A stretch of 64,000 nucleotides of DNA, taken from positions 34,288,001 through 34,352,000 of the forward strand of contig CM097885.1 in NCBI GenBank assembly GCA_044892525.1, in the 5' to 3' direction. A program made the translations under genes and the position numbers. This document shows, in pieces, positions 15,201-64,000 of this stretch. The notes under the pieces are model-generated. The model was given only the letters and a program-made list of their open reading frames with translations. It had not been told where the DNA came from and ran no database searches. Position 1 is the stretch's first letter; each line of letters begins with the position of its first letter. The stretch is from Schmidtea polychroa. Its lineage: Eukaryota.

Positions 15201-15526
15201 CCGGGATCGAACCAGTGACCTTTAGATCTTCAGTCTAACGCTCTCCCAACTGAGCTATCGCGGCTTATTTACAATAACAGACATCAGCTCATCACTGGTA
15301 AATTCCACTAGAGCTTTATTTTCAAATTTTCATCAAACACCAATCTTATTTCCAACGTTCAAATTCATTATCATTTGAATTCAGATCAATATAATATTTC
15401 AATTTCAATATTTGACAAGTGACATAAATTTTTTCAAAAATTTAATTGCCGCGAACCGGGATCGAACCAGTGACCTTTAGATCTTCAGTCTAACGCTCTC
15501 CCAACTGAGCTATCGCGGCTTATTTA

Positions 15527-15594
15527 CGAACCGGGATCGAACCAGTGACCTTTAGATCTTCAGTCTAACGCTCTCCCAACTGAGCTATCGCGGC
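15527..15594 (-). pseudogene. 3'-truncated tRNA-Phe copy in a shortened 75-bp unit (180-bp deletion)
   Basis: The plus strand reads ...cggcttattta-c-gaaccgggatc..., so most of the spacer and the last ~5 tRNA nucleotides are missing. Confidence 0.75.
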
Positions 15595-16528
15595 TTATTT
15601 ACAATAACAGACATCAGCTCATCACTGGTAAATTCCACTAGAGCTTTATTTTCAAATTTTCATCAAACACCAATCTTATTTCCAACGTTCAAATTCATTA
15701 TCATTTGAATTCAGATCAATATAATATTTCAATTTCAATATTTGACAAGTGACATAAATTTTTTCAAAAATTTAATTGCCGCGAACCGGGATCGAACCAG
15801 TGACCTTTAGATCTTCAGTCTAACGCTCTCCCAACTGAGCTATCGCGGCTTATTTACAATAACAGACATCAGCTCATCACTGGTAAATTCCACTAGAGCT
15901 TTATTTTCAAATTTTCATCAAACACCAATCTTATTTCCAACGTTCAAATTCATTATCATTTGAATTCAGATCAATATAATATTTCAATTTCAATATTTGA
16001 CAAGTGACATAAATTTTTTCAAAAATTTAATTGCCGCGAACCGGGATCGAACCAGTGACCTTTAGATCTTCAGTCTAACGCTCTCCCAACTGAGCTATCG
16101 CGGCTTATTTACAATAACAGACATCAGCTCATCACTGGTAAATTCCACTAGAGCTTTATTTTCAAATTTTCATCAAACACCAATCTTATTTCCAACGTTC
16201 AAATTCATTATCATTTGAATTCAGATCAATATAATATTTCAATTTCAATATTTGACAAGTGACATAAATTTTTTCAAAAATTTAATTGCCGCGAACCGGG
16301 ATCGAACCAGTGACCTTTAGATCTTCAGTCTAACGCTCTCCCAACTGAGCTATCGCGGCTTATTTACAATAACAGACATCAGCTCATCACTGGTAAATTC
16401 CACTAGAGCTTTATTTTCAAATTTTCATCAAACACCAATCTTATTTCCAACGTTCAAATTCATTATCATTTGAATTCAGATCAATATAATATTTCAATTT
16501 CAATATTTGACAAGTGACATAAATTTTT

Positions 16529-17028
16529 NNNNNNNNNNNNNNNNNNNNNNNNNNNNNNNNNNNNNNNNNNNNNNNNNNNNNNNNNNNNNNNNNNNNNNNN
16601 NNNNNNNNNNNNNNNNNNNNNNNNNNNNNNNNNNNNNNNNNNNNNNNNNNNNNNNNNNNNNNNNNNNNNNNNNNNNNNNNNNNNNNNNNNNNNNNNNNNN
16701 NNNNNNNNNNNNNNNNNNNNNNNNNNNNNNNNNNNNNNNNNNNNNNNNNNNNNNNNNNNNNNNNNNNNNNNNNNNNNNNNNNNNNNNNNNNNNNNNNNNN
16801 NNNNNNNNNNNNNNNNNNNNNNNNNNNNNNNNNNNNNNNNNNNNNNNNNNNNNNNNNNNNNNNNNNNNNNNNNNNNNNNNNNNNNNNNNNNNNNNNNNNN
16901 NNNNNNNNNNNNNNNNNNNNNNNNNNNNNNNNNNNNNNNNNNNNNNNNNNNNNNNNNNNNNNNNNNNNNNNNNNNNNNNNNNNNNNNNNNNNNNNNNNNN
17001 NNNNNNNNNNNNNNNNNNNNNNNNNNNN
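16529..17028. other. Assembly gap (500 N) inside the array
   Basis: Run of N flanked by array units in the same orientation. Confidence 0.99.
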
Positions 17029-44000: not shown

Positions 44001-47000
44001 AATATAATATTTCAATTTCAATATTTGACAAGTGACATAAATTTTTTCAAAAATTTAATTGCCGCGAACCGGGATCGAACCAGTGACCTTTAGATCTTCA
44101 GTCTAACGCTCTCCCAACTGAGCTATCGCGGCTTATTTACAATAACAGACATCAGCTCATCACTGGTAAATTCCACTAGAGCTTTATTTTCAAATTTTCA
44201 TCAAACACCAATCTTATTTCCAACGTTCAAATTCATTATCATTTGAATTCAGATCAATATAATATTTCAATTTCAATATTTGACAAGTGACATAAATTTT
44301 TTCAAAAATTTAATTGCCGCGAACCGGGATCGAACCAGTGACCTTTAGATCTTCAGTCTAACGCTCTCCCAACTGAGCTATCGCGGCTTATTTACAATAA
44401 CAGACATCAGCTCATCACTGGTAAATTCCACTAGAGCTTTATTTTCAAATTTTCATCAAACACCAATCTTATTTCCAACGTTCAAATTCATTATCATTTG
44501 AATTCAGATCAATATAATATTTCAATTTCAATATTTGACAAGTGACATAAATTTTTTCAAAAATTTAATTGCCGCGAACCGGGATCGAACCAGTGACCTT
44601 TAGATCTTCAGTCTAACGCTCTCCCAACTGAGCTATCGCGGCTTATTTACAATAACAGACATCAGCTCATCACTGGTAAATTCCACTAGAGCTTTATTTT
44701 CAAATTTTCATCAAACACCAATCTTATTTCCAACGTTCAAATTCATTATCATTTGAATTCAGATCAATATAATATTTCAATTTCAATATTTGACAAGTGA
44801 CATAAATTTTTTCAAAAATTTAATTGCCGCGAACCGGGATCGAACCAGTGACCTTTAGATCTTCAGTCTAACGCTCTCCCAACTGAGCTATCGCGGCTTA
44901 TTTACAATAACAGACATCAGCTCATCACTGGTAAATTCCACTAGAGCTTTATTTTCAAATTTTCATCAAACACCAATCTTATTTCCAACGTTCAAATTCA
45001 TTATCATTTGAATTCAGATCAATATAATATTTCAATTTCAATATTTGACAAGTGACATAAATTTTTTCAAAAATTTAATTGCCGCGAACCGGGATCGAAC
45101 CAGTGACCTTTAGATCTTCAGTCTAACGCTCTCCCAACTGAGCTATCGCGGCTTATTTACAATAACAGACATCAGCTCATCACTGGTAAATTCCACTAGA
45201 GCTTTATTTTCAAATTTTCATCAAACACCAATCTTATTTCCAACGTTCAAATTCATTATCATTTGAATTCAGATCAATATAATATTTCAATTTCAATATT
45301 TGACAAGTGACATAAATTTTTTCAAAAATTTAATTGCCGCGAACCGGGATCGAACCAGTGACCTTTAGATCTTCAGTCTAACGCTCTCCCAACTGAGCTA
45401 TCGCGGCTTATTTACAATAACAGACATCAGCTCATCACTGGTAAATTCCACTAGAGCTTTATTTTCAAATTTTCATCAAACACCAATCTTATTTCCAACG
45501 TTCAAATTCATTATCATTTGAATTCAGATCAATATAATATTTCAATTTCAATATTTGACAAGTGACATAAATTTTTTCAAAAATTTAATTGCCGCGAACC
45601 GGGATCGAACCAGTGACCTTTAGATCTTCAGTCTAACGCTCTCCCAACTGAGCTATCGCGGCTTATTTACAATAACAGACATCAGCTCATCACTGGTAAA
45701 TTCCACTAGAGCTTTATTTTCAAATTTTCATCAAACACCAATCTTATTTCCAACGTTCAAATTCATTATCATTTGAATTCAGATCAATATAATATTTCAA
45801 TTTCAATATTTGACAAGTGACATAAATTTTTTCAAAAATTTAATTGCCGCGAACCGGGATCGAACCAGTGACCTTTAGATCTTCAGTCTAACGCTCTCCC
45901 AACTGAGCTATCGCGGCTTATTTACAATAACAGACATCAGCTCATCACTGGTAAATTCCACTAGAGCTTTATTTTCAAATTTTCATCAAACACCAATCTT
46001 ATTTCCAACGTTCAAATTCATTATCATTTGAATTCAGATCAATATAATATTTCAATTTCAATATTTGACAAGTGACATAAATTTTTTCAAAAATTTAATT
46101 GCCGCGAACCGGGATCGAACCAGTGACCTTTAGATCTTCAGTCTAACGCTCTCCCAACTGAGCTATCGCGGCTTATTTACAATAACAGACATCAGCTCAT
46201 CACTGGTAAATTCCACTAGAGCTTTATTTTCAAATTTTCATCAAACACCAATCTTATTTCCAACGTTCAAATTCATTATCATTTGAATTCAGATCAATAT
46301 AATATTTCAATTTCAATATTTGACAAGTGACATAAATTTTTTCAAAAATTTAATTGCCGCGAACCGGGATCGAACCAGTGACCTTTAGATCTTCAGTCTA
46401 ACGCTCTCCCAACTGAGCTATCGCGGCTTATTTACAATAACAGACATCAGCTCATCACTGGTAAATTCCACTAGAGCTTTATTTTCAAATTTTCATCAAA
46501 CACCAATCTTATTTCCAACGTTCAAATTCATTATCATTTGAATTCAGATCAATATAATATTTCAATTTCAATATTTGACAAGTGACATAAATTTTTTCAA
46601 AAATTTAATTGCCGCGAACCGGGATCGAACCAGTGACCTTTAGATCTTCAGTCTAACGCTCTCCCAACTGAGCTATCGCGGCTTATTTACAATAACAGAC
46701 ATCAGCTCATCACTGGTAAATTCCACTAGAGCTTTATTTTCAAATTTTCATCAAACACCAATCTTATTTCCAACGTTCAAATTCATTATCATTTGAATTC
46801 AGATCAATATAATATTTCAATTTCAATATTTGACAAGTGACATAAATTTTTTCAAAAATTTAATTGCCGCGAACCGGGATCGAACCAGTGACCTTTAGAT
46901 CTTCAGTCTAACGCTCTCCCAACTGAGCTATCGCGGCTTATTTACAATAACAGACATCAGCTCATCACTGGTAAATTCCACTAGAGCTTTATTTTCAAAT

Positions 47001-49414
47001 TTTCATCAAACACCAATCTTATTTCCAACGTTCAAATTCATTATCATTTGAATTCAGATCAATATAATATTTCAATTTCAATATTTGACAAGTGACATAA
47101 ATTTTTTCAAAAATTTAATTGCCGCGAACCGGGATCGAACCAGTGACCTTTAGATCTTCAGTCTAACGCTCTCCCAACTGAGCTATCGCGGCTTATTTAC
47201 AATAACAGACATCAGCTCATCACTGGTAAATTCCACTAGAGCTTTATTTTCAAATTTTCATCAAACACCAATCTTATTTCCAACGTTCAAATTCATTATC
47301 ATTTGAATTCAGATCAATATAATATTTCAATTTCAATATTTGACAAGTGACATAAATTTTTTCAAAAATTTAATTGCCGCGAACCGGGATCGAACCAGTG
47401 ACCTTTAGATCTTCAGTCTAACGCTCTCCCAACTGAGCTATCGCGGCTTATTTACAATAACAGACATCAGCTCATCACTGGTAAATTCCACTAGAGCTTT
47501 ATTTTCAAATTTTCATCAAACACCAATCTTATTTCCAACGTTCAAATTCATTATCATTTGAATTCAGATCAATATAATATTTCAATTTCAATATTTGACA
47601 AGTGACATAAATTTTTTCAAAAATTTAATTGCCGCGAACCGGGATCGAACCAGTGACCTTTAGATCTTCAGTCTAACGCTCTCCCAACTGAGCTATCGCG
47701 GCTTATTTACAATAACAGACATCAGCTCATCACTGGTAAATTCCACTAGAGCTTTATTTTCAAATTTTCATCAAACACCAATCTTATTTCCAACGTTCAA
47801 ATTCATTATCATTTGAATTCAGATCAATATAATATTTCAATTTCAATATTTGACAAGTGACATAAATTTTTTCAAAAATTTAATTGCCGCGAACCGGGAT
47901 CGAACCAGTGACCTTTAGATCTTCAGTCTAACGCTCTCCCAACTGAGCTATCGCGGCTTATTTACAATAACAGACATCAGCTCATCACTGGTAAATTCCA
48001 CTAGAGCTTTATTTTCAAATTTTCATCAAACACCAATCTTATTTCCAACGTTCAAATTCATTATCATTTGAATTCAGATCAATATAATATTTCAATTTCA
48101 ATATTTGACAAGTGACATAAATTTTTTCAAAAATTTAATTGCCGCGAACCGGGATCGAACCAGTGACCTTTAGATCTTCAGTCTAACGCTCTCCCAACTG
48201 AGCTATCGCGGCTTATTTACAATAACAGACATCAGCTCATCACTGGTAAATTCCACTAGAGCTTTATTTTCAAATTTTCATCAAACACCAATCTTATTTC
48301 CAACGTTCAAATTCATTATCATTTGAATTCAGATCAATATAATATTTCAATTTCAATATTTGACAAGTGACATAAATTTTTTCAAAAATTTAATTGCCGC
48401 GAACCGGGATCGAACCAGTGACCTTTAGATCTTCAGTCTAACGCTCTCCCAACTGAGCTATCGCGGCTTATTTACAATAACAGACATCAGCTCATCACTG
48501 GTAAATTCCACTAGAGCTTTATTTTCAAATTTTCATCAAACACCAATCTTATTTCCAACGTTCAAATTCATTATCATTTGAATTCAGATCAATATAATAT
48601 TTCAATTTCAATATTTGACAAGTGACATAAATTTTTTCAAAAATTTAATTGCCGCGAACCGGGATCGAACCAGTGACCTTTAGATCTTCAGTCTAACGCT
48701 CTCCCAACTGAGCTATCGCGGCTTATTTACAATAACAGACATCAGCTCATCACTGGTAAATTCCACTAGAGCTTTATTTTCAAATTTTCATCAAACACCA
48801 ATCTTATTTCCAACGTTCAAATTCATTATCATTTGAATTCAGATCAATATAATATTTCAATTTCAATATTTGACAAGTGACATAAATTTTTTCAAAAATT
48901 TAATTGCCGCGAACCGGGATCGAACCAGTGACCTTTAGATCTTCAGTCTAACGCTCTCCCAACTGAGCTATCGCGGCTTATTTACAATAACAGACATCAG
49001 CTCATCACTGGTAAATTCCACTAGAGCTTTATTTTCAAATTTTCATCAAACACCAATCTTATTTCCAACGTTCAAATTCATTATCATTTGAATTCAGATC
49101 AATATAATATTTCAATTTCAATATTTGACAAGTGACATAAATTTTTTCAAAAATTTAATTGCCGCGAACCGGGATCGAACCAGTGACCTTTAGATCTTCA
49201 GTCTAACGCTCTCCCAACTGAGCTATCGCGGCTTATTTACAATAACAGACATCAGCTCATCACTGGTAAATTCCACTAGAGCTTTATTTTCAAATTTTCA
49301 TCAAACACCAATCTTATTTCCAACGTTCAAATTCATTATCATTTGAATTCAGATCAATATAATATTTCAATTTCAATATTTGACAAGTGACATAAATTTT
49401 TTCAAAAATTTAAT

Positions 49415-49483
49415 TGCCGCGAACCGGGATCGAACCAGTGACCTTTAGATCTTCAGTCTAACGCTCTCCCAACTGAGCTATCG
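49415..49483 (-). pseudogene. Terminal tRNA-Phe copy lacking nucleotides 1-4 (GCCG), interrupted by the retrotransposon 3' end
   Basis: The plus strand reads ...gagctatcg|ttaaaacatttatt instead of ...gagctatcg|cggcttattt. Confidence 0.95.
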
Positions 49484-50006
49484 TTAAAACATTTATTAAT
49501 TATAATAAATTTGATATTTGTATTTACAATAGGACAGTGCTCAGCATGGAACACGCCTTTCTAGAAAATAACAAGAACAAAAGAGTCAGAAAGAAATCGA
49601 TCATATTCACTGTATTTTTCGGGATTATTTCGACTCAGATGTTAATGTCAATTTTCTGATTAGTCCCTGGCTCTGATGATATCGCAGTCATCGGATGTTT
49701 TATCCGGCTTTGAATATTGGAGTGTTCAATTACATCAGTTTTCACCAGTCATTCAACCTGCAATCTGTTTCCTGGGCTGATGTTGAGAATCTGAACCTTC
49801 AATACGCAGCATCTAAACAATATCCTTGCAATAGACAAAAAAAGCATATTTACATGTTTATAAATATATACAACTGCCTTTCTTTTGGAGGGTTCATCTA
49901 AAATTCTAAATATATACAAAGATATTTATACATATACATTGATATTTAAAAACCCGAGAATGACAATGCTTCTGAGATCTTAGAGCAATTCGTTATGGAG
50001 ATTTTT
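49484..50006 (-). other. 3' UTR of the retrotransposon, with AATAAA 8 nt before the junction and no poly(A) tract
   Basis: Lies between the ORF2 stop (50007) and the tRNA junction; plus strand tttatt at 49492-49497. Confidence 0.8.
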
Positions 50007-53000
50007 CTAATTAAGGTCTGCTAAAGTGCCAGTTTTGTGGTAGTACCACCGTCTGGCAGAATGTGTGATGTTACTTATCGCACATTCCTTCAGTAGACTG
50101 TTTATTTCTGTGCGTTTAACTCCAATTTTTAAAAGGATTTCAGGAGTTGATGACGGAAAAGAACCCAAAGCTCCGATAATACAAGTGTCAAGTTCGACTT
50201 TGAAATCAGGTTTGACAGCTTGTATTTCATTCTTAAGCGATTCGTATTTAATTAAATTTGAAGAGTCAACTAGTTGAAAGTTCTTGATAGAGTCGATAGG
50301 ACATTTCATGTCAACTAGAAAGATCTTCCTTTTCAACAAATCAGTGATCATTAAATCCACTCGTTCTTTGGAATTCGGAACAAGTGAACAGATATGATCT
50401 ACTACAACAATCAAGTTGGGATTTTTCATTAATCGACTAGTGATTAATTTCAGACAGTCATCATGTCGCTCTGAGGCAAGGGTCAGATGGACTTTACAAG
50501 ATTGAATGATATGTGACATTGTCTCTTCCTCAGTTTGACAACGACGACAAAGTCTTTTACCACCTTTATTGTAAGGCTTCGCATTGACTGAGAGGGAGTT
50601 TGTGCGAGCTCTGTGTATGAAGTTCCAAGCAAATTCAGAGAGAGCACCACGAAAAATTGCGATGTTTATTTTAGGCGAAAGTCTGATTGCTGCAGCTATA
50701 ATGTTGGAGTTATGACTGTTCTCTCCTTTCAAAAGATAGGCATCGCAGAGTGCCATGTGCAAAACCTTAGACGTGGTTTGGCGTAAGTCAGAAGTGAGAA
50801 TACACGTGCCACGCATTGCTGTTGTAATATAAAGCGATGTTTCTTGCTTTGTTACAATAAATGCTATTGAGATTTTGTGATATTTTTCAAAAAATGCAAT
50901 AGCAGTTCTGACTCGCTGGAATCGAGTTTTCTTTCCAGAATGGCAAAGTTTGGATTGCTTACCATTGAGCCAGTCAAGACTCTCCTGTAGTGTAGGGTCT
51001 TTTATTCCGAGTCGAGGTCCAGTGACAAAGCTCAGAGAATCAGTGTTGATCTTTTTCGCAAAGTCACACTTAGATGTTAAGAGTCGAAAGAAATGTGTTA
51101 TTGTCTGTGTGTGATATTCGTCAAGAAGGTCTACACAGTTTGCTCCTCCGTTTTCAGTTGAGTTGTAGAAATAACTTACTTCAGAGTGATTTGGCAAAAG
51201 TAACATTTTTCTGAGACAACTCCTCACTTGACTGGTGATGTTGACAGAACGATTACTATTGGCGCTTGGTTTTGAAAGAGTGCTAGTTTTAATTTCGCGA
51301 GTTCTAAAGGGAAAAATCAAACGTGAATGGACAAAGATCTTATAAGCTTTAAGTTTTTGCCATCCAAGTAGGTCAGAATCGGCAAGTTTTTTCGTGTCAG
51401 ATACGACCTTCTCAAGAATGTCATATGGATTCTGATCAGTCTCTTCACCAACAGGCACTCCAAGATACTGATAAAATTCATTAGGTTGTAATTTTTTGAT
51501 TTTAATGCCGTCAATCGAAATTTCACTATCTATTTCAAGGTTTGGCAATTGAAGATATGCACACTTTTCAGGGCGATATTCAAAGCCAATTTCAGTTGCA
51601 GTTGCTACAGCTATATCGGTGATTTTCTGAAGTTCTTCAACAGATTTTGTAACTAAAGCTATGTCATCTGCATATGCAAGGATCTTAATTGGAGATTTCC
51701 CAATCCTGAAAGGTCTACAATCGGATCGCGATACAGCTTCAAGTACTGGATTAATGGCCAAAGCAAACAATATCATCGATATTGGACATCCTTGTTTGAC
51801 ACCTTGTTTAATAGGGATGTTTGGTGTCAGAATATTACCACAGCTGTAAAAGGTACTTGTGTTGGAATATAACATCTGGATGATGGATGCAAATTCCTCG
51901 CTTACTCCAATGAATCGGAGTAAGGACCACATGTATTCATGGGGAACACTACCAAAGGCATCTTTTATATCAAGCCAAGCAATTGCAAGAGGCTTATTTA
52001 CGCTGTATTTTGAGTGTTCTAGTGCAGCAGAAAGAATTGAATTATGCTCAACACATCCATCATGTTGTGAGCCACCTTTTTGACCGATATGTAAAAGATC
52101 ATTCGAGTTTATCCAACTTGTCAGACGACTAGCTAAACAAGATGCGAAAACCTTGTAAATGACAGAAAGCAAGGCAATTGGACGCCAAGACGAGACGTCA
52201 TCATATTTTCCATCTTTATCCGGCTTAGGAGTTAGAAGTGTTTTGAAGGTCTTCCAACTGTCTGGTATGGTCTTGTTTAAAATGATTTTATTGTACAAGA
52301 AAGTAAGCAATTTACCCTCGGGATCAAGAGACAACAAGTCACGATATTGTATTCCATCAATACCAGGACTTGTGTTCTCAGCTTTCTTTAGTTCGAAAAG
52401 TACTTCATCACATGTGAGCAAAATTAAACGAAGTTTAATTTGGGAACGTTTACAGAATTCAAATATTTTATCCCATGATTTTTCTAAAGGGGTTTTGTGC
52501 ATGAAATTCATGACAATATTTTGAAATTTTGGCATCACTGTGATATTTGTATTGTTGAAGATTTTATTGACTGTTGACTTCATATCAGTCATGAATTTTG
52601 CGATTAATTTACCCTTGTTGATTTTTGAAGGTAATTTCTTTTTATTTCCCAAGTATGGTTTATGAGTTGATTTTAATTTGTCAGGGAATTGCTCAATGAT
52701 AACATCAATGATTTCGTTTACATTGAAATCTGTCACTCTCCTCAGTAGTTCTAATGCTCTGAGTTTACGCAATTCTAAATTTGCATTCCCCTCTTTATTT
52801 TTGTTACTGTTTGTTGGTCTTACAGTCTTTTTCCTATTAAAATCATTTACAATTGGGATAAATGAGCTGACGACATTACCAATTTCGCGTAAGTTCAAAT
52901 TTGTAAGAGGTAAGTCTTTAGCATAGTTTTGGATGAACGCGCATATCAGGATTTTACTAACTAGACCTGATCCTCGAGTGTCATGAGGACAATTACCAGT

Positions 53001-54611
53001 ATATAATACACGGCCAGGTGATTCTCTGATTTCATTAATTTTGTTCCTAAGAATTTTGCAGGTAGGAAGATAACTTTCATTACCACTCAGTGTCGTCGGA
53101 TTTAGAAGATAGTGCTCATCAGTTTGGTAATCAATGATAAACAAGATTTCCCTTGATTTTTCTGGTGCTACGATAGTAAATATGACTTGTGCCTTGATCA
53201 ACGATTCACAATCTAAAAATTCATTTAAATATCTAGTGCAATCGTCAAGAATCGCAGTGCACATTGTAGCATTTAAAAACATGAACTTTGTGGGTAAGTT
53301 TAATTTATGAATGTATTTTGATGTGATTTCATCATTAATTTTACAGTTAATTAAGTTTAAATTCCTGGAGATCTCGTTTGTTTGTTGTATTTTATAAGAT
53401 TTAAGGGACTCACTGATACTTCTACGACAAACCTGATTGTCAAAAAGTAATTTTTCGACCAATTCAATGACAGCAGAAGCAAATATATCTGGGTCAACAG
53501 ATGTGATGGAAATGTGGTCGATGTTGTGGAGACTATTGAAGTTGATCTTCGTTTGAGAAAGGAAAAATTTATTCATATAGTCTGTCATGTTTTCTCCTAT
53601 GCCGATTAGTCTCTCAGTTAGAATTCTGTTGTTAAAGTTGAAAATGTAACTGATTCCTAAAACGAAAGAGAAAAGATACAGACTCCAATTCGTGTCGTCT
53701 GGAATGACGCTGATGACATGTTCTATTCCAGAAAATTGTTTAAACGTGACATTTTCCCTGATGAATATATCGTTTTGTGCAATAATATTCAATGTCAGTT
53801 CATGAGAAAGAATAGTATTATTGCTTTTATCTTTATACCATTCACTAATCAGGTATGTGACACATGAGTTCTGTTTCTGGAGATGTATCAGGTTACCATT
53901 CCTCACCTTCTTAACTCCATTTCGTTTGATTGTCTCCATGAATTTTGGAAGGCCACCCCCCGAAGTATTGGGATCTTTTTGTTGTTGAGTAAGTTTAAAC
54001 TGGTGGACCTCTTTCCTGATAGTCTCGATGAAGCAGCCCGACAAGCTCTGCCATTCTCCACAAATCATCATGGCATATGCGCAGATGTATGGCCCACAAT
54101 CATAGTTATTATTTTGATATAAAAGGTTATTATGAGGATGAAAAGTCATGGCTGCTTTAAGGTCAAACAATTCATTCAGAGCCATTGTGATCTTAAGAGC
54201 AATTGTTTTATTCGTAAAACTATGCCGATTTAGAAGAATTGGATCGATGAAGTAAGAAATTAGGGAAGATTTACAATAAACGAACAAGATCCAATGAGAT
54301 TTGTTGATGTTAAGGGGGCATAATATTACTTGTGCTTTCAAGACTCTTTCCGGAATTGGGAAAGTGTCATTCTCGAGGTTAGAGCACAAAATCTCAACGA
54401 TAAAACATTTGATAGACGCAAATTCTGTGTTGATGATGTGATTTTCGAGAAAATTATCAATATCATCATCAGTGAACCAGATCTTTGGGTCGCGTTTTAC
54501 CATCAAATTTTTATTATTATTAATGATGTCGTGATGTTTATTAGAATTTTTTGTGCTGTCTGCATCAGTCTCCTTAGAGATTGGGGCAGATGTTGAGACT
54601 GATACAGGCAC
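50007..54611 (-). CDS. ORF2 polyprotein: Ulp1/C48-like protease, two degenerate protease-like repeats, reverse transcriptase, CCHC zinc knuckle, restriction-like endonuclease
   Basis: Protease motifs: WFTDDDI, HW (H106), D123, QNNNYDCG (Q166, C172). RT motifs: SPGIDGI, WRPIALL, LDIKDAFGSV, GVKQGCPIS, YADD (51663-51674), YQYLG. Knuckle: CRRC-x8-H-x4-C, followed by RHD. RLE: RVDL...LVDMK...KY. The track start codon is GTG; the first ATG is at 54503. Confidence 0.95.
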   Translation of the reverse strand: MPVSVSTSAPISKETDADSTKNSNKHHDIINNNKNLMVKRDPKIWFTDDDIDNFLENHIINTEFASIKCFIVEILCSNLENDTFPIPERVLKAQVILCPLNINKSHWILFVYCKSSLISYFIDPILLNRHSFTNKTIALKITMALNELFDLKAAMTFHPHNNLLYQNNNYDCGPYICAYAMMICGEWQSLSGCFIETIRKEVHQFKLTQQQKDPNTSGGGLPKFMETIKRNGVKKVRNGNLIHLQKQNSCVTYLISEWYKDKSNNTILSHELTLNIIAQNDIFIRENVTFKQFSGIEHVISVIPDDTNWSLYLFSFVLGISYIFNFNNRILTERLIGIGENMTDYMNKFFLSQTKINFNSLHNIDHISITSVDPDIFASAVIELVEKLLFDNQVCRRSISESLKSYKIQQTNEISRNLNLINCKINDEITSKYIHKLNLPTKFMFLNATMCTAILDDCTRYLNEFLDCESLIKAQVIFTIVAPEKSREILFIIDYQTDEHYLLNPTTLSGNESYLPTCKILRNKINEIRESPGRVLYTGNCPHDTRGSGLVSKILICAFIQNYAKDLPLTNLNLREIGNVVSSFIPIVNDFNRKKTVRPTNSNKNKEGNANLELRKLRALELLRRVTDFNVNEIIDVIIEQFPDKLKSTHKPYLGNKKKLPSKINKGKLIAKFMTDMKSTVNKIFNNTNITVMPKFQNIVMNFMHKTPLEKSWDKIFEFCKRSQIKLRLILLTCDEVLFELKKAENTSPGIDGIQYRDLLSLDPEGKLLTFLYNKIILNKTIPDSWKTFKTLLTPKPDKDGKYDDVSSWRPIALLSVIYKVFASCLASRLTSWINSNDLLHIGQKGGSQHDGCVEHNSILSAALEHSKYSVNKPLAIAWLDIKDAFGSVPHEYMWSLLRFIGVSEEFASIIQMLYSNTSTFYSCGNILTPNIPIKQGVKQGCPISMILFALAINPVLEAVSRSDCRPFRIGKSPIKILAYADDIALVTKSVEELQKITDIAVATATEIGFEYRPEKCAYLQLPNLEIDSEISIDGIKIKKLQPNEFYQYLGVPVGEETDQNPYDILEKVVSDTKKLADSDLLGWQKLKAYKIFVHSRLIFPFRTREIKTSTLSKPSANSNRSVNITSQVRSCLRKMLLLPNHSEVSYFYNSTENGGANCVDLLDEYHTQTITHFFRLLTSKCDFAKKINTDSLSFVTGPRLGIKDPTLQESLDWLNGKQSKLCHSGKKTRFQRVRTAIAFFEKYHKISIAFIVTKQETSLYITTAMRGTCILTSDLRQTTSKVLHMALCDAYLLKGENSHNSNIIAAAIRLSPKINIAIFRGALSEFAWNFIHRARTNSLSVNAKPYNKGGKRLCRRCQTEEETMSHIIQSCKVHLTLASERHDDCLKLITSRLMKNPNLIVVVDHICSLVPNSKERVDLMITDLLKRKIFLVDMKCPIDSIKNFQLVDSSNLIKYESLKNEIQAVKPDFKVELDTCIIGALGSFPSSTPEILLKIGVKRTEINSLLKECAISNITHSARRWYYHKTGTLADLN

Positions 54612-54617
54612 GCACCT

Positions 54618-55946
54618 TCATTTAATCTTGGAGACTACTTTCCTCGTTTTCCTACTTGGTCTTGTTTGTAAGTCCTCCTGTTGATCACAACAAGAAATTG
54701 CGGGAGTAGATGGGATTATATCCAAATCAACAGGCAGCTGTCGTTTCAGAGTCGCATGTTCTTGTAGATCACCCTCCAGAATGTCGTTAATCTCTATGGA
54801 TCGAGATGGCTCTTTCACAGCTGTTTCCACCGAGGTATCTAGTCCAGATGTGTTTCTCCTCTGCTCACCATTACTTTCAATCACAGATGTCAAGAGGACA
54901 TCAAGCATGTCTGTGATAATGCAAGTCATATTTGGTGTGCAAATTTTCCTACAATGCTTAGGTATACGGTAGGAGAATTTACTGTTAGATAAAAATTTCT
55001 TTTTGTCTCTAATGATAAAAAAGAGAAATCTTTTAGCTTTTATCATCTCTTCTTCGGATGTGCCTAATTCCATTTGATTAATGTTGCGGCCCAAATTCTC
55101 AAGAACCTTAAGTTGGGCAGCCTTTTGTGGACAGATTTCATCAATTTTGTCAAGAAAGGAATTGATTTTATAGATGGTTTCTGGAGAGATAATGTTGTGT
55201 ATTCTATCGATCTCCTCTGACAGTTTCCACTGTCGAAGTTTTAGTAGTCTTTCCTGACAACTAGAAGAGTAGTATGAAAGACTGGGGATCATATTAATCA
55301 TCTCCGGACCCCAATTTTCAATGTTGTCGCACCTTAATGTATTGCAATTTTCAATTTTAGTAATTGAGTGCATCAAAAAACAATTACGTAAATAGTTTTT
55401 AACGTACTCATCAAATGTAGGATTTGAAATGTGTATTATGGTGCCTTTTAAATTTAAATAGTTGATATAATATATTATGTCAACCAGTTTAGATGGGGAG
55501 TTTGGCTGAGTCAGAAGAGATTTAAGTATGGGGTCATCTTCTGACATTTTAACAAAATTAATCAATCCCAGGTTGAACATTATATCAGACGCATTTTCAG
55601 AATGTGGGACTTTAGGAATTTCAGGAATTTTATTAGTTTTAATAAATTTGCCCTTCACAAACGAGATCTCGTTAGGGAAATTTTTTTCTAATTTTAAATC
55701 ATTAATTAATTTAGTTAGTAAATCAGGATTCTTATTTATATTCTCAGAAAAATATAATTCCTGAATTTCAGGAAACGATTTATATAACTCTTTCAACTGT
55801 GATCGCGAAAGTTCTAAGGTTTGAAGACTGGTGTTCTCATTACCAGAGTCACAGCTATTGAAAAGATCTAATAAGATAAAATCACCTTCAGAAAATTTTA
55901 TCTGTGATCTTATCAAGAAATCGGGAAGTTCACGTCGTTGTTTCAT
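54618..55946 (-). CDS. ORF1 of the retrotransposon, unknown function (442 aa from the first ATG; frame open to 56069)
   Basis: Long open frame in AT-rich DNA directly upstream of and in frame with ORF2. Its C-terminal part is conserved in the second copy (KAKRFLFFIxRDKKKFL). I recognise no domain. Confidence 0.8.
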   Translation of the reverse strand: MKQRRELPDFLIRSQIKFSEGDFILLDLFNSCDSGNENTSLQTLELSRSQLKELYKSFPEIQELYFSENINKNPDLLTKLINDLKLEKNFPNEISFVKGKFIKTNKIPEIPKVPHSENASDIMFNLGLINFVKMSEDDPILKSLLTQPNSPSKLVDIIYYINYLNLKGTIIHISNPTFDEYVKNYLRNCFLMHSITKIENCNTLRCDNIENWGPEMINMIPSLSYYSSSCQERLLKLRQWKLSEEIDRIHNIISPETIYKINSFLDKIDEICPQKAAQLKVLENLGRNINQMELGTSEEEMIKAKRFLFFIIRDKKKFLSNSKFSYRIPKHCRKICTPNMTCIITDMLDVLLTSVIESNGEQRRNTSGLDTSVETAVKEPSRSIEINDILEGDLQEHATLKRQLPVDLDIIPSTPAISCCDQQEDLQTRPSRKTRKVVSKIK

Positions 55947-56134
55947 TCCATTCAAGATGTTATTTGTCTGTGCCGCTCTTTGATTTATATTTTTGATGGT
56001 AGCCGTCTCTGCGAGCTTATGTGAGTAGGTAGTTAGGAGCCCGCTGCCGCAACCCCCCCCCTGCGGCAAGAATATTTTTGCGGCACGATTTTTTTTTGCG
56101 GCAACTTTTGATTACGCAATTTTTTAGACTATTT

Positions 56135-56790
56135 TGAGGGGGTCTCGATGGTCCTGGGATTTTCAATACAAAAAAATTTTTTTTCAATACAAAAACGATG
56201 GTCCTGAGATTTTCAATACAAAAAGGTGGTCTTCAATAAAAAAGCCAAGGATTATTCACATTATAGTGAGGGGGTCTTGATGGTCCAGGGATTTTCAATA
56301 CAAAAAATTTTTTCAATAGAAAAAGGCGGTCTTCAATAAAAAAGCATGGAATTTTCAGAATATAGTGAGGGGGTCTCGATGGTCCTGAGATTTTCAATAC
56401 AAAAAGGTGGTCTTCAATAAAAAAGCCAAGGATTATTCACATTATAGTGAGGGGTCTTGATGGTCCAGGGATTTTCAATACAAAAAATTTTTTCAATACA
56501 AAAAGGTGGTCTACACTAAAAAAGAGTGGCAATTTAAGGTCTCAGGATATTTTCAATACAAAAAGGTGGTCTACACTAAAAGACAGTGGTAATTTAAGGT
56601 CTCATGATAATTTCAATACAAAAATCTGATTATCACTAAAAAAGCATGGATTATTCACACTATAGTGAGGGGGTCTCCTTGGTCCTGTGATTTTCAATAG
56701 AAAAAGGTGGTCTTCAATAAAAAAGCATGGTAATTTAAGGTCTCAGGATATTTTCAATAGAAAAAAGTGGTTTACACTAAAAAACATGGT
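56135..56790 (+). repeat. Complex minisatellite built from gagggggtctcgatggtcc / ttttcaatacaaaaaggtggtc modules
   Basis: gagggggtct occurs at about 56136, 56268, 56367, 56449 and 56667, with many ttttcaata(c/g)aaaaa modules between. Confidence 0.85.
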
Positions 56791-56799
56791 AAATTTTTT

Positions 56800-57480
56800 A
56801 AAATAAAGCAAATTATGGGTCTAAAAATTGAATTACAGTAAATTATGGGCTAAGATTTTTGAATTAAAGTAAATGATGGTCTAAATAAGTAAATTATGGT
56901 CCAAAATTTAACTTAGAGTAAATTATGGGCTCAGATTTTTGAATTAAAGTTATCAATGGGCTCAAATAAGTAAATTAAGGTTAAAATTTTTAAATAAAAG
57001 TAAATTATGGGTATAAAAATTCAATTACAGTAAATAATGGTCCAAATTTTTCTATTAAAGTAAATAATGGTTCAAATTTTTAAATTAAAGTAATGAATGG
57101 GCTCAAATAACTAAATTAAGGTTCTAAAAAATTAAATTAAAGTTAATTAAGGTCCACATTTTAAAATTAAGTAATCAATGGTCAAAAATTTTAAATTAAA
57201 GTTAAATAAGTAAATTAAAGTAATAATTTTTAAATAGGTAATGTAATAAGTAAATTAAAGTAAGATTTTAAAATTTATTAACAAAAAGTTGAAATAATAG
57301 AAGGTGTTTGAGAATTGAAATTTTTTAATGAAAATTTTTATGAAATAATTTTTTAAGTTAATTTTTAATGGAAATTTTTATGAAATATTTTTCAATGATA
57401 ATTTTAGATGGAAATTTTTAAGATAATTTTTAATGAAAATTTTAATGAAATATTTTTCAAAGACAAATTTTAATAATAAT
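56800..57480 (+). repeat. AT-rich degenerate tandem repeats (aaagtaaattatgg ~30-bp type, then aatgaaaatttt type)
   Basis: Repeated gtaaattatgg / gtaaattaagg motifs followed by repeated tgaaaatttt motifs. Confidence 0.8.
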
Positions 57481-58600
57481 TCAACAACAAACCAACAACT
57501 TAGTACCAACAACCAGTAACTTACGAACATGTATTAACAACCAGATACCTACAACTAGTTACTAACAACCAGTTACCTGATACCAAGTACTTACAACTAG
57601 TTACTAACAACATGTTACCTGTTACCAAGTACTTACAACCAGTTACCTGCTACCAAATACTTACAACTAGTTACTAACAACCAATTACCTGCTACCAAGT
57701 ACTTACAACGAGATACCACGTACTAAATAACTCTCAAACAACCAAGTACCTACAACAAATTACCAGATACCAAGTACCTACAACTAATTACTAACAACTA
57801 GTTACCTGATACTAAGTACCTACAACCATCTAACAAGTACTAACAACCAAAAACAAGCAACCAACTAGGTACCAAGTACTAACAACCGACAAAAACCAGC
57901 TAACAACTAACTACCACCTACCAACTACTTACAACCAACATCAACCAGGTACTAAGCATTAATTACCAACTACTAAGTACCTACAACCAACTACTAAGTA
58001 CTAACAACCTACAACAACCAGCTACTAAGCATTATCAACCAAGTACCTACAACTATATACTAACAACCAAAAACAACCAACCAAATAGGTACCAGATACC
58101 AAGTACCTACAATCAACAACAACCAGTAACTTACGAACATATATTTACAACCAGATACCTACAACTAGTTACTAACAACTAGTTACCTGATACCAACTAC
58201 TCACAACCACCATCAACCAGCTACTAAGCATTATCAACCAACTACTAAGTACCTACAACCACCATCAACCAGCTACTATGCATTATCAACCAACTAACTA
58301 CCACCTACCAAGTACTTACAACCCACAACAACCAGATACCTACAACTAGATACTAACAACTAGTTACCTGATACCAACTACTCACAACCACCTACCAAGT
58401 ACATACAAATAGTTACTAACAACCAGTTACTTGCTACTAAGTACCTTCAACCAACTAGCTACCACCTACTAAGTACCAACAATCAACTAACAACCAGGTA
58501 CTAAGCATTATCAACCAACTACTAACAACCAAGTACAAGATACCTAGTATTAAGCACTGTCAACTAGATACCAAGTACTTACAACCAGATGACCACATGA
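57480..58600 (+). repeat. A/C-rich degenerate minisatellite (taccaagtac / tacaac / actaacaac modules)
   Basis: Dozens of shuffled short modules with strong strand skew. Related blocks occur at ~59380-59500 and ~59900-60230. Confidence 0.8.
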
Positions 58601-58876
58601 AATTATTGGTTAAATATGAAAATAAGGTGTAAAATTAAGAAATAAAGAATAATTAGGTAATTAAAGTTAAAAATTTTAAATAAGTAAATTAAGGTTCAAA
58701 ATTTAAAATTAAGTAACCAATGGTTCAAATTTTAAATTAAAGCTAAATAAGTAAATTAAAGTAAGATTTTTAAATTTATTATCAAAAAGATTGAAGAACC
58801 ACCAACTTTTTTTGAGAAATGTAATTTTTAATGAAAATTTAAATGGAAATTGTTTTTTTTTAAGTTAATTTTAAAT

Positions 58877-59234
58877 TAGGGTTATTAATATCGGTTTTTC
58901 GAGCAATCCGATTATCGTTTGTATAAATCCGATTTTAAACCGATTATCGTTTGCACTTTGCATAACCAAAGCTACTTACATTATTACTATTCACGCACGT
59001 GTATAGTATAATTAGTTTTATTCAAAGTTTATACCACACACAAGGAGAATATGAACTGACTGTTTATGTAAAAAGTTAAAGCATATAAGTAAATTTGTTT
59101 TCAATTTCTTCGATAATTTTCCCTGTATATAGTATATACCGAAACAAAACCGATTATCGTTTTGTGAAATAAAGAAACCGATAATCGTTTTCAAAATCGA
59201 AAATCGGATTTCCGATTTTCGTTTAACAACCCTA
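58877..59234. mobile_element. 358-bp non-autonomous hAT-like DNA transposon (MITE)
   Basis: TIRs TAGGGTTATTAA ... TTAACAACCCTA (11 of 12 match), a perfect 8-bp TSD TTTTAAAT at 58869-58876 and 59235-59242, and subterminal ccgat(t/a)atcgttt repeats near both ends. Confidence 0.88.
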
Positions 59235-59282
59235 TTTTAAATGTAAAATTTTTTAAGTTAATTTTTAATGAAAATTTTAATG

Positions 59283-59283
<1 letters not shown>

Positions 59284-59363
<80 letters not shown>

Positions 59364-59376
59364 TAATAATAATAAT
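59284..59376 (+). repeat. (AAT)n microsatellite, about 31 units with one interruption
   Basis: Read directly from the sequence. Confidence 0.97.
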
Positions 59377-60774
59377 TCAACAGTTACCAACAATCGGTTA
59401 CTAAATATTTTTAACTAGATGCTAACAAATACTTTCAACACGATACCACGTACTAACTAACTATCAAACAACCAGATACTTACAACTAACTACTAAATAT
59501 TCTTCACTGTATTTTATGAAATGCTTTTTAAATTAATTTTTTATCTGTCTTCAAAAATATGTTTAATTACAATCAATAGAAAACCTTTTCAAAATGTCTA
59601 AATTTAACAAAAATGTTGATTTTCATCAAAAAATAATTGACAACTCATCACCACGTGAAATTCAAAATAATTTAAATTACAATGAAAGACTAATGAATTC
59701 TAATTTACAAAACATTCTTCTTTTAATTGATTACTACTGACTTATTATTGCAAAGTAAAAATCGCATTCAATAAATACTTATTGTTGATCAGTTTTATTA
59801 TATATACTCTGAGTTTATCCGACAGGATGTTTTGACCCCCTAAGGGTACTGGTGGTAAGGGTATTAGTCGTAAAGGTACTAGTCGTAAGGGTATTGGTAA
59901 CACTCAAACACCACCTACCCATTAACTAGCTACTAAGTACTAACAACCAGCTAACAACTAGATACCATGTACTAACAACCACCATCAACCAGATACTAAA
60001 CATTATTAACCTACAACTATATAACAACAAATCAGTAAACAACACTGTACCAACTACCAAATACAAGATACCAACAACTAGATACCAAGTACCAACAATA
60101 AACTAATCACACATAAAAATAATAGCAAATAAATACAAAATATTCTTCATCACATACACTATCTTCTTATCAAAATCTAAAAAGTCAACCAACTACTTAC
60201 AACCAACAACTATGTACTAACAAATTGATCTTTAAAAGAAAATACTCATCACTTGAAAAATTGGATGAAAAATTAATTGAATTCAAGGCATCAATAACTT
60301 GGTAAAAATTGATTAAATAATTGTAAAAATTTAAATTATTCAAAATAAATATCATAAAAATTTAATTAATGGACAAGAAAGAACATTAAATTTGAATCCT
60401 TAGTCATCCAGTAAATAAAAAAATACTGATCATTCAAGTTGAATCAACTAAGTTAATAAATTAATAAGAATTTTGAAATAAGATCTAATAAATAACTGAT
60501 TTAGATTGAATAAATTAATTTAAATAAAATTAGTTTTAATTATTTTTTTTTAAAAGTAATACATGTACTCAAATTGATTAACAGATTGCTCAAAATATTC
60601 AAAAAATCAGTATAAATTCATTACAATTATCAAAGTCAGCAATCTACAATAAAAATAATTATCATTAAATTCCAAAAGAGACAAGATAACTAATGATAAC
60701 ATCTAACAAACCAGTAAATTCATTTAAATGACAATAATTGGTATATTCAAGCGAATTCTCGAATAAAATCATCT

Positions 60775-61085
60775 AAAAGCATCAGATTTTCCTGAAATAA
60801 CTCTATCTTTAAAGATTAATATTTTATCGATAAATATCCTTAAAAGGTTATATATTTACCTCAGACTAATAAGATTGCTAAAATCCCCTTTAAATGACTA
60901 TATTTCAACCCTTAATTCATATTATTACAAATATCATCAAAAAGCATCAAATTTCCTTGAAATAACTATCCTTAAAGATTGATATTTTAATGATAAGTAC
61001 CCGTAAAAGATCATATATTCCCCTCAGACTAATAAGATTGCTTAAAATCCCTTTAAATGACTATAATTCTTACTTTAATTCCTAT
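60775..61085 (+). repeat. Two diverged tandem copies of a ~165-bp unit
   Basis: aaaagcatca...cctcagactaataagattgct...ctttaaatgactata occurs starting at 60775 and at 60940. Confidence 0.85.
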
Positions 61086-61602
61086 TATCATACATATTTC
61101 ACTATTGATAAAACCAGTTATAATTAAATTTTTTTTAATCACTGTACTCGATATTTTAAATAAATATTACTACAATATAACTGACTAGGTCCCATTGAAA
61201 GAATAAATTTATCCATTCAATAAAATAAATTTCTTCAAATGATCATTTTTACCAATATTCAACCGATTTAATTACTAATTAAAATCATTCGATAAAATTT
61301 CTTTAAATAAAGATCAATTTTCTTTAGTCGATGTTTTAAGTCCATATTTCTCAACTTTTGTCATTCTCCGCTTAAATAAAGATAAAAATAATTTAAATTT
61401 GATATCAATTCCAATTATCTGTAAAGATTTCATTGTCAAAACCAAGTAAATCGATCATCATCTCTACTTAATAAAAAATTGTTCTAAATTAATTTACTGT
61501 GCATTAATCACAACCTAATAAAACGATATAATTATTATTGATTCATAATTGACTAATGTATTGACATTTCCCTTAAAACATTGATATTTTACCAACATCT
61601 CG

Positions 61603-61706
61603 CTTACAATGATATATTCCCATCTTAACCCATCCTTCATTAAATTAAATCGACTATATCCCACTTACAATGATATATTCCCATCTTAACCCATCCTTCA
61701 TTAAAT
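61603..61706 (+). repeat. 43-bp direct repeat with 61-bp period
   Basis: cttacaatgatatattcccatcttaacccatccttcattaaat at 61603 and 61664. Confidence 0.9.
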
Positions 61707-61708
61707 CT

Positions 61709-61831
61709 AAAAAATTTTTTTTGTATTGAAAATCCCAGGACCATCGTTTTTGTATTGAAAAAAAATTTTTTTGTATTGAAAAAAATTTTTTTGTATTGAA
61801 AATCCCATGACCATCGAGACCCCCTCACTAT
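61709..61831 (-). repeat. Inverted copy of the 56135 minisatellite end
   Basis: Reverse complement reads tagtgagggggtctcgatggtcatgggattttcaatacaaaaaa..., matching the sequence from 56135. Confidence 0.9.
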
Positions 61832-61932
61832 TTGAGTATATTTTTGAGTATTTTTTGTTATTAATCAAATTTTTGCTTTTAAAATATTTTGTATTTTGAT
61901 ACATTTTATTTTTCAAAAGGCCTTTGTTTTCT

Positions 61933-62481
61933 TTAGCCAAAAAAATTTGAATCGTTTTTTTCAACTTTAATTATATTTAATTCTGATTTGTTTAAGTTAT
62001 TTAATTTAATATTAGATAACATTTGGTCTTCAAATTTAGGTAAATAAAATTCTACTTTTCGAATTTTATTATTTACAGTTATTTTTAATTCAGGTTCCAG
62101 ATATCCACATGCCTGAGCCTGATGGTCAAGAGAAGGGCCACTCCGGATTATCGAATCAGAACTTGATTTTTTTACAAATAAATTTTTATTTAAATTTTTT
62201 ACTTTATTTTTAGTTGAGTAATTAGTATAATTAGGATCATTAGAATCATTAGAGATATTCGTTCTAGATCCAGCATTTAAGGGGTTATTTATAATTTTAG
62301 GTTTAATTATATTTAAAGCATTTGAATTATTTCTTAATTTAATAATATAAGAAATTTTTCTATTTAATTTATGTTTTTGATTTTGAAAATCATTTACTTT
62401 ATTTTGATAAGAATTATATCTATCAGAATGAAATCCATTACTAAAATTGTTTTTAAATTCATTATCTTTTACAAAATTCAT
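61933..62481 (-). CDS. Asn/Lys-rich open frame (182 aa), possibly a fragment of another element; function unsupported
   Basis: Open frame in very AT-rich DNA. Its ATG overlaps the breakpoint of the degenerate retrotransposon copy, and it has no diagnostic motif. Confidence 0.2.
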   Translation of the reverse strand: MNFVKDNEFKNNFSNGFHSDRYNSYQNKVNDFQNQKHKLNRKISYIIKLRNNSNALNIIKPKIINNPLNAGSRTNISNDSNDPNYTNYSTKNKVKNLNKNLFVKKSSSDSIIRSGPSLDHQAQACGYLEPELKITVNNKIRKVEFYLPKFEDQMLSNIKLNNLNKSELNIIKVEKNDSNFFG

Positions 62482-63335
62482 TCAGAGCCATTGTGATTTT
62501 AAGAGCAATTGTTTTATTCGTAAAACTATGCCGATTTAGAAGGATTGGATCGATGAAGTAAGAAATAAGGGAAGATTTACAATAAACGAAGATCCAATGA
62601 GATTTGTTGATGTTAAGGGGGCGTAATATTACTTGTGCTTTCAAAACTCTTTCCGGAATTGGGAAAGTGTCATTCTCGAGGTTGGAGCACAAAATCTCAA
62701 CAATAAAACATTTAATAGACGCAAATTCTGGGTTGATGATGTGATTGTCGAGAAAGTTATCGATCTCATCATCAGTGAACCAGATCTTTGGGTCGTATTT
62801 TACTATAAAATTTTTATCATGTTTAATAATATTTATTGTGCTGTCTGCATCAGTCTCCTTCGAGATTGGGGCAGATGTTGAGACTGATGCAGGCACGAAC
62901 TTTCATTTAATCTTGGGAACTACTTTCCTCGTTTTCCTACTTGGTCTAGTTAGTAGGTCCTTCTGTTGATCACAAGTGGAAATTGTGGGTGTAGATGGGA
63001 TTATATCCAAATCAACAGGCAGCTGTCGTTTCAGAGTTGTCTGTTCCTTTAGTTCAGATTTCAAAGAGTCTCTATGGAGTTAGATGTCTCTTTCGCAACC
63101 GGTTCCACGGATTCTTTGATGGTTTCTGAGGTGTTTGAATCAGATGTGTCCGTTTTTTGTTCACCGTTATTTCCAATCACATATGGCAGCAGAACATCAA
63201 GCATGCCTGTAATAATGCAAGATATACGGTAGGAGAATTTACTGGTGAATAGAAATTTCTTTTTGTCTCTAAGAATGAAAAAAAGAAATCTTTTAGCCTT
63301 ATTCATCTCTTTGTCATTTGTGACTAGTTCCATTT
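62475..63335 (-). pseudogene. Degenerate internal fragment of the same retrotransposon family (ORF1 C-terminus plus ORF2 N-terminus)
   Basis: Aligns by eye to ~54169-55075. It has internal deletions (HWILF to HWIF; PKHCRKICTPNM lost), a frame disruption near 63060, and is truncated before the protease catalytic Cys. Confidence 0.92.
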
Positions 63336-64000
63336 TAATAATTATGGTGGGTTACAGGTAATCCAAAGTTTCTACCTACTCGTGCTGTTTCCAGCGTAAC
63401 CCAGAATACACTTGACAGCAGACCACTTGATACCCGTTGAGCAATCAACGTTGGTACTGTATCAAGGGTTTGAGTACTAGCAAATATTGAGCATGCTTAG
63501 CATACTATAATTGTTCAGCACCCACTGGGGTTCACGGACTGCCGAAAGAAGGCTTATGTCCGATTTCTTATTCAGGTCCCCATCTATTCCGACCGATTGA
63601 GTGTCGTTCCATTTATATTTATTCCATTTAAAATACAAAACCACGTTTTCTTTATTCAACGATTTCCCGTTTGTCGTTACTCACACTCCATTTCAGACAT
63701 GTCCCTGTACGCGTGTACACACATAGGTATTCGCCTCTCCATCCATCTCTTCATACACCTGTATACGCCCATCTATTCACGTCCTTGAGCTTGCCGGATT
63801 ATCTGGGTGTATTCGATTCGGTTTTAATCACGTTCAAACATCCAACATACTCTATTTAAATTTACTGCATTCTCGATCCTCGTTTTTATCAATTAGTTTT
63901 TAAATGCCTAATTTAGCTTTTAATTAATTTAATTTTTAACGAAATATCGATCCTGATGAGGCATTATCTCCTAGAAATTTAGAGAAAACATTCAATTTCA

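Follow-up and report, generated by a model that had tools for sequence, protein, structure and literature searches.

A single in-frame UGA and a predicted RNA hairpin at the ORF1-ORF2 junction of an R5/LIN-type retrotransposon in Schmidtea polychroa: a candidate site of stop codon readthrough

How does a retrotransposon with two open reading frames (ORFs) make its second protein when the second frame has no conserved AUG? The question is raised by a non-LTR element (one lacking long terminal repeats) on the minus strand of Schmidtea polychroa contig CM097885.1 (assembly GCA_044892525.1), within a stretch of 64,000 nucleotides (positions 34,288,001 to 34,352,000) referred to here as the window. 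Two ORFs in one frame, 54618-56111 and 50007-54617 of the window, adjoin each other and are parted by one TGA, with both flanking frames open. ORF2s without an AUG are a long-standing puzzle, and the synthesis of the second protein from bicistronic LINE-type RNAs is settled for few elements, L1 (LINE-1) and SART1, both of which make their ORF2 protein (ORF2p) by termination-reinitiation (PMC5972666). For the present element, structure-stimulated readthrough of the UGA is favored over reinitiation at GUG or a near-cognate codon, with a probability of roughly 0.55, because the stop, a 6-nt spacer and a long predicted stem resemble established readthrough signals, and the GTG lies buried in that stem. 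The features on which this argument turns are as follows.

54618 to 54620, minus strand: TGA closing ORF1, in frame with ORF2, with AAA (Lys) before it and A after it.
54609 to 54611, minus strand: GTG at the base of the predicted hairpin, aligned with the called start (M-P-A) of 4/4 close relatives.
54553 to 54611, minus strand: predicted RNA hairpin, with a 13-bp core (54607-54595 with 54572-54560), a 22-nt loop and a 4-bp basal helix over a 3-nt bulge.
54501 to 54503, minus strand: first in-frame ATG of ORF2 (M37 counted from the GTG), kept in contigs X9#25 and X1#4.
54574 to 54621, minus strand: ORF of 15 codons (18 in copy 2) opened by an ATG overlapping the stop (A-TGA), in the -1 frame and not that of ORF2.
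62475 to 63342, minus strand: copy 2, a decayed internal fragment of 868 nt cut at both ends, with its TGA (62905-62903) and GTG (62896-62894) kept.

A first-pass annotation of the window had read the junction of copy 1 as AAG ATT AAA TGA AGG TGC GTG CCT (TGA 54620-54618 and GTG 54611-54609, minus strand) and that of copy 2 as AAG ATT AAA TGA AAG TTC GTG CCT (62914-62891). Both readings are correct, and the stop, the 6-nt spacing and the GTG are common to the two copies. The annotation had also proposed folding the RNA downstream of the TGA, which yields a strong predicted hairpin at the GTG that it had not noticed. The basal helix pairs GUGC with GCAC; in the register of copy 2, where all 17 bp are paired, the stem begins 6 nt and the core helix 10 nt past the stop. 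Folding from the stop gives a z-score of -4.39 (0/200 shuffles), and a z-score of -4.8 is reached in both copies (0/500 shuffles each). No other uninterrupted helix in the 6.5-kb element is as long as this 13-bp one, and the hairpin windows rank second by raw energy, not corrected for GC content, of 1,293 windows of 75 nt. A z-score scan in 70-nt windows, which cut the hairpin, does not place the junction first. The hairpin persists in a 400-nt context, and the pairing probability of the copy 2 GUG is 0.99 alone and about 0.85 in that context. Copy 1 has a lone G-U pair, for which copy 2 has G-C; nearly all contig depth in 4/4 runs likewise carries a C at 54604 (minus strand), so that the pair becomes Watson-Crick. 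Across the end of ORF1, a stretch of 156 nt has no more structure than its shuffled versions (z -0.19). A search of Rfam at the junction gave no credible match (two matches, E 2.9 and 4.1), and so no known ribozyme or frameshift element.

Known stimulators of readthrough are stems of 11-16 bp that begin 6-9 nt past the stop codon and thus sit where the mRNA enters the ribosome (PMC3159437). The predicted stem is at least 11 bp long and, counted to the basal helix in the register of copy 2, lies within that distance. Such structure-stimulated readthrough is described for alphaviruses, tobra- and furoviruses, murine leukemia virus (MuLV) gag-pol and the SEPN1 element (PMC3159437). The likeness to the viral systems extends to the layout, in which an in-frame stop parts the polymerase from a structural or other preceding ORF and is followed by a 6-9 nt spacer and an 11-16 bp stem, whereas the viral UGA is mostly followed by C and here by A, no pseudoknot is seen here, and the host element is a non-LTR retrotransposon (PMC3159437).

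The stop itself appears to belong to the family. The first-pass annotation had argued that the TGA is not a copy-specific nonsense mutation and had relied on copy 2, which turns out to be weak evidence: it is a fragment whose ORF1 is frameshifted by a 7-nt gap upstream of the junction, and its identity to copy 1 is no higher at the junction (64/68 nt) than in the protease domain (296/309 nt), so that a common stop is expected by descent. The claim holds on other grounds. Contigs of four runs from four studies were aligned to 53900-56300, and among the 40 of 272 difference rows inspected none falls at the TGA, the GTG or the ATG. Two junction-spanning contigs, X9#26 and X2#10, carry five differences each, all elsewhere, leaving TGA and GTG unchanged. 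Because the stop is unchanged in these contigs of two other studies, and because protein searches found no ORF1-ORF2 fusion, a family-wide stop is supported.

Those searches also supply the relatives in which the junction can be followed. With residues 30-700 of ORF2 as the query, covering proteins of 844-2,688 aa, four close relatives were found (P0003-P0006; 1,499-1,537 aa, 36-51% identity), and a profile search with 15 matches added no further close relative. A HMMER search with ORF1 gave 14 matches, all of 960 aa or less, among which P0034 is a spurious kinase match; a word-indexed search with ORF1 screened 6,924 candidates and yielded no match. Neither the 14 ORF1 matches nor the four ORF2 relatives include a fused form, and the protein searches turned up no relative in which a sense codon replaces the stop. 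The profile match P0007 (1,968 aa) comes from a distant element, and its alignment covers 49% of the query.

In all four ORF2 relatives the called start falls in the GTG column and opens with M-P-A; no Met occurs from there to the protease, and all four carry the motif [DG]A[DE][SC]T 12-15 residues after M-P-A. The 42-residue leader that holds these motifs is disordered in the structure model (pLDDT under 50, residues 1-42), so protein structure is a poor reason for their conservation. When only those codon bases that the amino acid dictates are scored, both motifs of the relatives are complementary in the register of the window. Two compensatory double changes are suggested, U-A to C-G at pair 10 in P0006 and C-G to G-C at pair 17 in P0005, with a possible third at pair 14 of P0004 if its Ser is TCN. 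Where the stem requires GCAC, Ser and Cys alternate. Opposite the first G of GUG stands a C contributed by the invariant Thr, which suggests that the called "M" of the relatives is probably GTG; the tools used print GTG as M. When every window of a relative was given the best of 14 registers, the windows equal to or better than the N-terminal one numbered 18/1,491, 99/1,504, 0/1,466 and 17/1,498 in the four proteins. Read from amino acids, the four relatives may share the hairpin. Searches for DNA of the relatives gave, in a metagenome scan, seven loci from 539 candidate stretches, all distant Ulp1 domains only; in viral contigs, 0/3; and in prokaryote genomes, one distant locus from 22 stretches. 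A search by hairpin pattern gave four loci, none similar to the proteins of the element.

Readthrough would proceed as follows. Most ribosomes would stop at the UGA and release the ORF1 protein (ORF1p), while a minority would meet the 13-17 bp hairpin at the mRNA entry channel with the UGA in the decoding site, insert an amino acid there and go on in frame. A full-length element would thereby make an ORF1-protease-reverse transcriptase-endonuclease polyprotein some 2,400-2,500 aa long, and the Ulp1-type protease of the element may cut it. The stop would set the ratio of ORF1 to ORF2. The readthrough, the self-cleavage and an in-frame stop 6 nt upstream in the relatives are all inferred. ORF1 ends in Lys, Asn or Asp both in the window and in 6/6 aligned relatives, all with codons that place an A at -2, and adenines ahead of a stop favor readthrough; this deserves little weight, as Lys is frequent at C-termini anyway.

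A broader proposal, held tentatively and at somewhat below even odds, is that this lineage converged on the strategy of gammaretroviruses and alphaviruses: UGA readthrough stimulated by a hairpin, kept across families at 36-51% protein identity, would make a polyprotein like gag-pro-pol, to be cut by a captured domain of the SUMO-protease type. A literature search of titles and abstract openings, whose coverage excluded most subscription journals and Repbase Reports, found no report of structure-stimulated readthrough in a non-LTR or LINE-type element. If readthrough is correct, non-LTR retrotransposons would join the systems that use this recoding, and their Ulp1-type protease would have a reason. 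Stop, spacer and stem are all defined within some 70 nt at the junction, a compact cassette in which readthrough and non-AUG reinitiation can be set against each other directly.

Several observations weigh against readthrough. The base after the UGA is A in both copies, and a leaky context (C after the UGA, or CARYYA) is absent. The basal GCAC of copy 1 is predicted to pair by preference with another GUGC, 4 nt nearer the stop, in a register that begins just 2 nt past it. Pair 10 is an A-G mismatch in P0005, and pairs 14-17 include mismatches in P0003, P0004 and P0006. When arms were crossed between sequences the table was not clean, the own 3' arm not being the best partner of every 5' arm, and common ancestry means that the pairing scores of the relatives are not independent. 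The relatives are known as proteins alone, so that their stop codon, frame and spacer are inferred and their "M" may be a true ATG, and the ORF1 and ORF2 relatives are not paired to the same elements. Finally, structure downstream of the stop also serves reinitiation in SART1 (PMC5972666).

This last point leads to the strongest competitor, termination-reinitiation, which is a distinctly less probable account. Ribosomes would stop at the UGA, be held there by the hairpin and restart at the GUG or a near-cognate codon to make a separate ORF2p beginning M-P-A. An ATG, GTG or TTG stands at the exact column in 4/4 relatives, GTG makes up merely 7/73 Val codons in ORF2, and the lack of a fused form among the protein matches fits two separate products. 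SART1 offers a precedent, as its RNA is likewise a bicistronic non-LTR transcript and reinitiation on it requires structure downstream of the stop-start site where ORF1 ends (PMC5972666). Conservation of the GUG, however, is explained by pairing alone; the wrong-frame AUG overlapping the stop would compete; and neither of the marks of a TURBS- or SART1-type site was found, as there is no stop-adjacent AUG in the ORF2 frame and no UGGGA motif in the 180 nt upstream of the junction. The GUG also lies within the stem, and its U at -3 and C at +4 make a poor context for a near-cognate start. Restart codons usually overlap or precede the stop, and the AUG of SART1 overlaps its stop in the ORF2 frame (PMC5972666), whereas the AUG that overlaps the stop here lies in another frame and no AUG of ORF2 is conserved. 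The first-pass annotation had rated readthrough and GTG initiation as equally possible; it was right that a CUAG or CARYYA motif is absent, but the hairpin 6 nt downstream tilts the balance toward structure-stimulated readthrough. Should reinitiation nevertheless prove true, a conserved GUG start buried in a stem would be likewise unusual.

An improbable alternative is that ORF2 is translated from a separate, shorter RNA, made from an internal promoter or given its AUG by spliced-leader trans-splicing, with the hairpin acting not in decoding but in the processing of the RNA or in binding a protein. The spliced leaders of flatworms have AUG at their end, and in-frame AG dinucleotides occur at +45 and +48 after the stop in both copies; those sites are AAG and GAG rather than YAG, though, and they lie in the loop or at the edge of the helix. 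A separate RNA would also leave the equal frames and the start of the stem 6 nt after the stop unexplained.

Two further proposals are very unlikely. In one, ribosomes would reinitiate in the -1 frame at the AUG that overlaps the stop and then reach ORF2 through a +1 frameshift. Overlaps of stop and start in the form AUGA are known (PMC5972666), the core helix begins 14 nt after the A of the AUG, and all three differences between the copies in the first 18 nt are silent in the -1 frame, but one of the three is nearly private to copy 1 and the short ORF ends differently in the two copies, with no common shift site. In addition, Asn or Asp is the last residue in 3/6 of the aligned ORF1 relatives, and neither permits an AUGA if these ends are true stops. 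In the other, ORF2 would start at ATG 54503 by leaky scanning or reinitiation. This ATG precedes the first folded helix of the protease in the structure model and persists in two contigs, and the annotation had correctly singled it out as the only in-frame ATG before the protease and as Ile in copy 2, where the codon is ATA. The absence of any Met there in 4/4 relatives excludes M37 as a general start, and a start at this ATG leaves the hairpin unexplained.

Least tenable is the notion that the TGA is a nonsense mutation in a former single ORF, the usual organization of Utopia and NeSL elements (PMC4640811), or that UGA is a sense codon in this organism, a pair of ideas largely refuted by the unchanged stop in contigs of two other studies, by the lack of a fused relative and by 17 TGG against 0 TGA in 2,004 codons, a count that indicates that UGA is not reassigned in the element. 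All 15 Trp codons of ORF2 are TGG. Two mechanical routes across the junction were also discarded. Inspection for a short intron spanning the stop found as sole candidates some that change the frame and differ between the copies, and a -1 slip at AUU AAA would meet UAA at once.

The element in which this junction lies is assigned from its sequence to the two-ORF R5/LIN-type non-LTR retrotransposons that insert into tRNA genes, because of its ORF2 domains, its insertion at tRNA position 4 and its 3' end like that of LIN25_SM. It is a new member of an already described lineage. Its features and surroundings are these.

1 to 49483, minus strand: target array of ~194 tandem 255-bp units with tRNA-Phe(GAA) genes, from a repeat count and tRNA gene calls.
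49484 to 50006, minus strand: 3' untranslated region, its last 30 nt like the 3' end of LIN25_SM, joining tRNA-Phe after nucleotide 4.
50007 to 54617, minus strand: ORF2 frame of 1536 codons, with a leader, a protease, two degenerate repeats of the protease fold, a reverse transcriptase (RT), and a putative zinc knuckle and restriction-like endonuclease.
51456 to 52226, minus strand: RT domain (RVT_1, E 4.5e-26, domain search).
53952 to 53960, minus strand: Gly-Gly-Gly after the protease domain, a candidate self-cleavage site (GG in 4/5 sequences, G-T-G in the fifth).
54066 to 54344, minus strand: Peptidase_C48 match above cut-off, ORF2 residues 92-184, of the Ulp1/CE-clan.
54618 to 56025, minus strand: ORF1, C-terminal half only, 5'-truncated, a helical protein, delimited by alignment to relatives and contigs.

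LIN25_SM is a planarian NeSL-related R5/LIN non-LTR retrotransposon that inserts after nucleotide 4 of tRNA genes, mainly tRNA-Glu (Kojima and Jurka 2015, PMC4640811). The element lies on the same strand as the array and adjoins its last tRNA-Phe gene after nucleotide 4 (junction 49484/49483). Both the insertion site and the family 3' tail of LIN25_SM-like elements are present; the insertion is judged from one event and its 3' junction alone. Position and orientation within the tRNA are those of LIN25_SM, and the AT-rich 3' ends are alike in 27/30 columns by eye, a likeness of insertion site and 3' end, whereas the target differs, tRNA-Phe here and mainly tRNA-Glu there (PMC4640811). As in NeSL-related members of the R2 group, a Ulp1-like cysteine protease lies upstream of the RT, and the RT is followed by the presumed zinc knuckle and restriction-like endonuclease. 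The matches of the ORF2 sequence, ORF2 profile and ORF1 HMMER searches include no named R5 or LIN protein. R5 of Girardia tigrina (Burke et al. 2003), a planarian relative of NeSL-1, reportedly has two ORFs, the second of which encodes the RT and a restriction-like endonuclease; its target is said to be 28S rDNA, whereas the element here lies at tRNA-Phe.

Calling of tRNA genes covered 44000-64000, where 21 tRNA-Phe(GAA) genes were called. Within the array, a run of ~500 N at 16530-17029 produces six spurious long ORFs, and the true array may exceed its assembled length. A 75-bp duplication at 15452-15602 sets two tRNA-Phe genes nearly head to tail. The lowest-energy 75-nt window of the element lies at 50020-50100 (minus strand), at the end of ORF2, and is a possible 3' recognition structure.

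Copy 1 reads as 5'-truncated near 56025. ORF1 aligns solely to the C-terminal half of four relatives that appear full length (822-960 aa) and, in the protein calls, end near the same place as ORF1 of the window; three contigs run 338, 573 and 887 nt past 56025 in sequence unlike the window; and no 5' flank of a tRNA gene is found at the 5' end of the element in the window. The 1,979-aa polyprotein that the annotation had counted from the ATG at 55946 is arithmetically right, but the product is not, since on this evidence that ATG encodes an internal Met; the readthrough fusion of a full-length element would instead reach the about 2,400-2,500 aa given above. ORF1 has no match in Pfam or PDB, and fold and Atlas searches were likewise empty. 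The four full-length relatives (P0021, P0022, P0026 and P0030) carry a CxxC...CxxC zinc ribbon near the C-terminus, with weak Pfam matches in two, and ORF1 of the window has a CC remnant only at that position. About 47 nt near the end of ORF1 (54700-54750, minus strand) are identical in both copies, silent sites included, and can form a small hairpin; this tract is possibly an upstream cis element or a conversion tract.

In ORF2, the protease residues H108, D125, Q168 and C174 are invariant in 5/5 sequences, and structure comparison finds a fold resembling NEDP1/Ulp1/SENP (best E 5.4e-06). The Gly-Gly motif that follows could let the protease release the RT part from a fusion. Between 52860 and 54480 (minus strand) there are apparently three tandem Ulp1-like folds, with catalytic residues in the first alone; repeats 1 and 3 align weakly (pairwise E 5e-04), and the secondary structure is repeated. 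Toward the C-terminus, C1357, C1360, H1369, C1374, D1421, D1436 and K1438 are invariant in 5/5 sequences and are taken, by motif, to be a zinc knuckle and a restriction-like endonuclease, the latter having no library match.

A few observations concern other copies and the surroundings. Contigs ~85% alike at 54946-55397 appear to be further diverged subfamilies of the element in the same organism. At 56026-56111 and 56087-56750, the truncated 5' end adjoins short repeats containing GCCGC and a very high-copy dispersed repeat; the latter has a contig depth ~100x that of the element and an inverted copy near 61700-61830.

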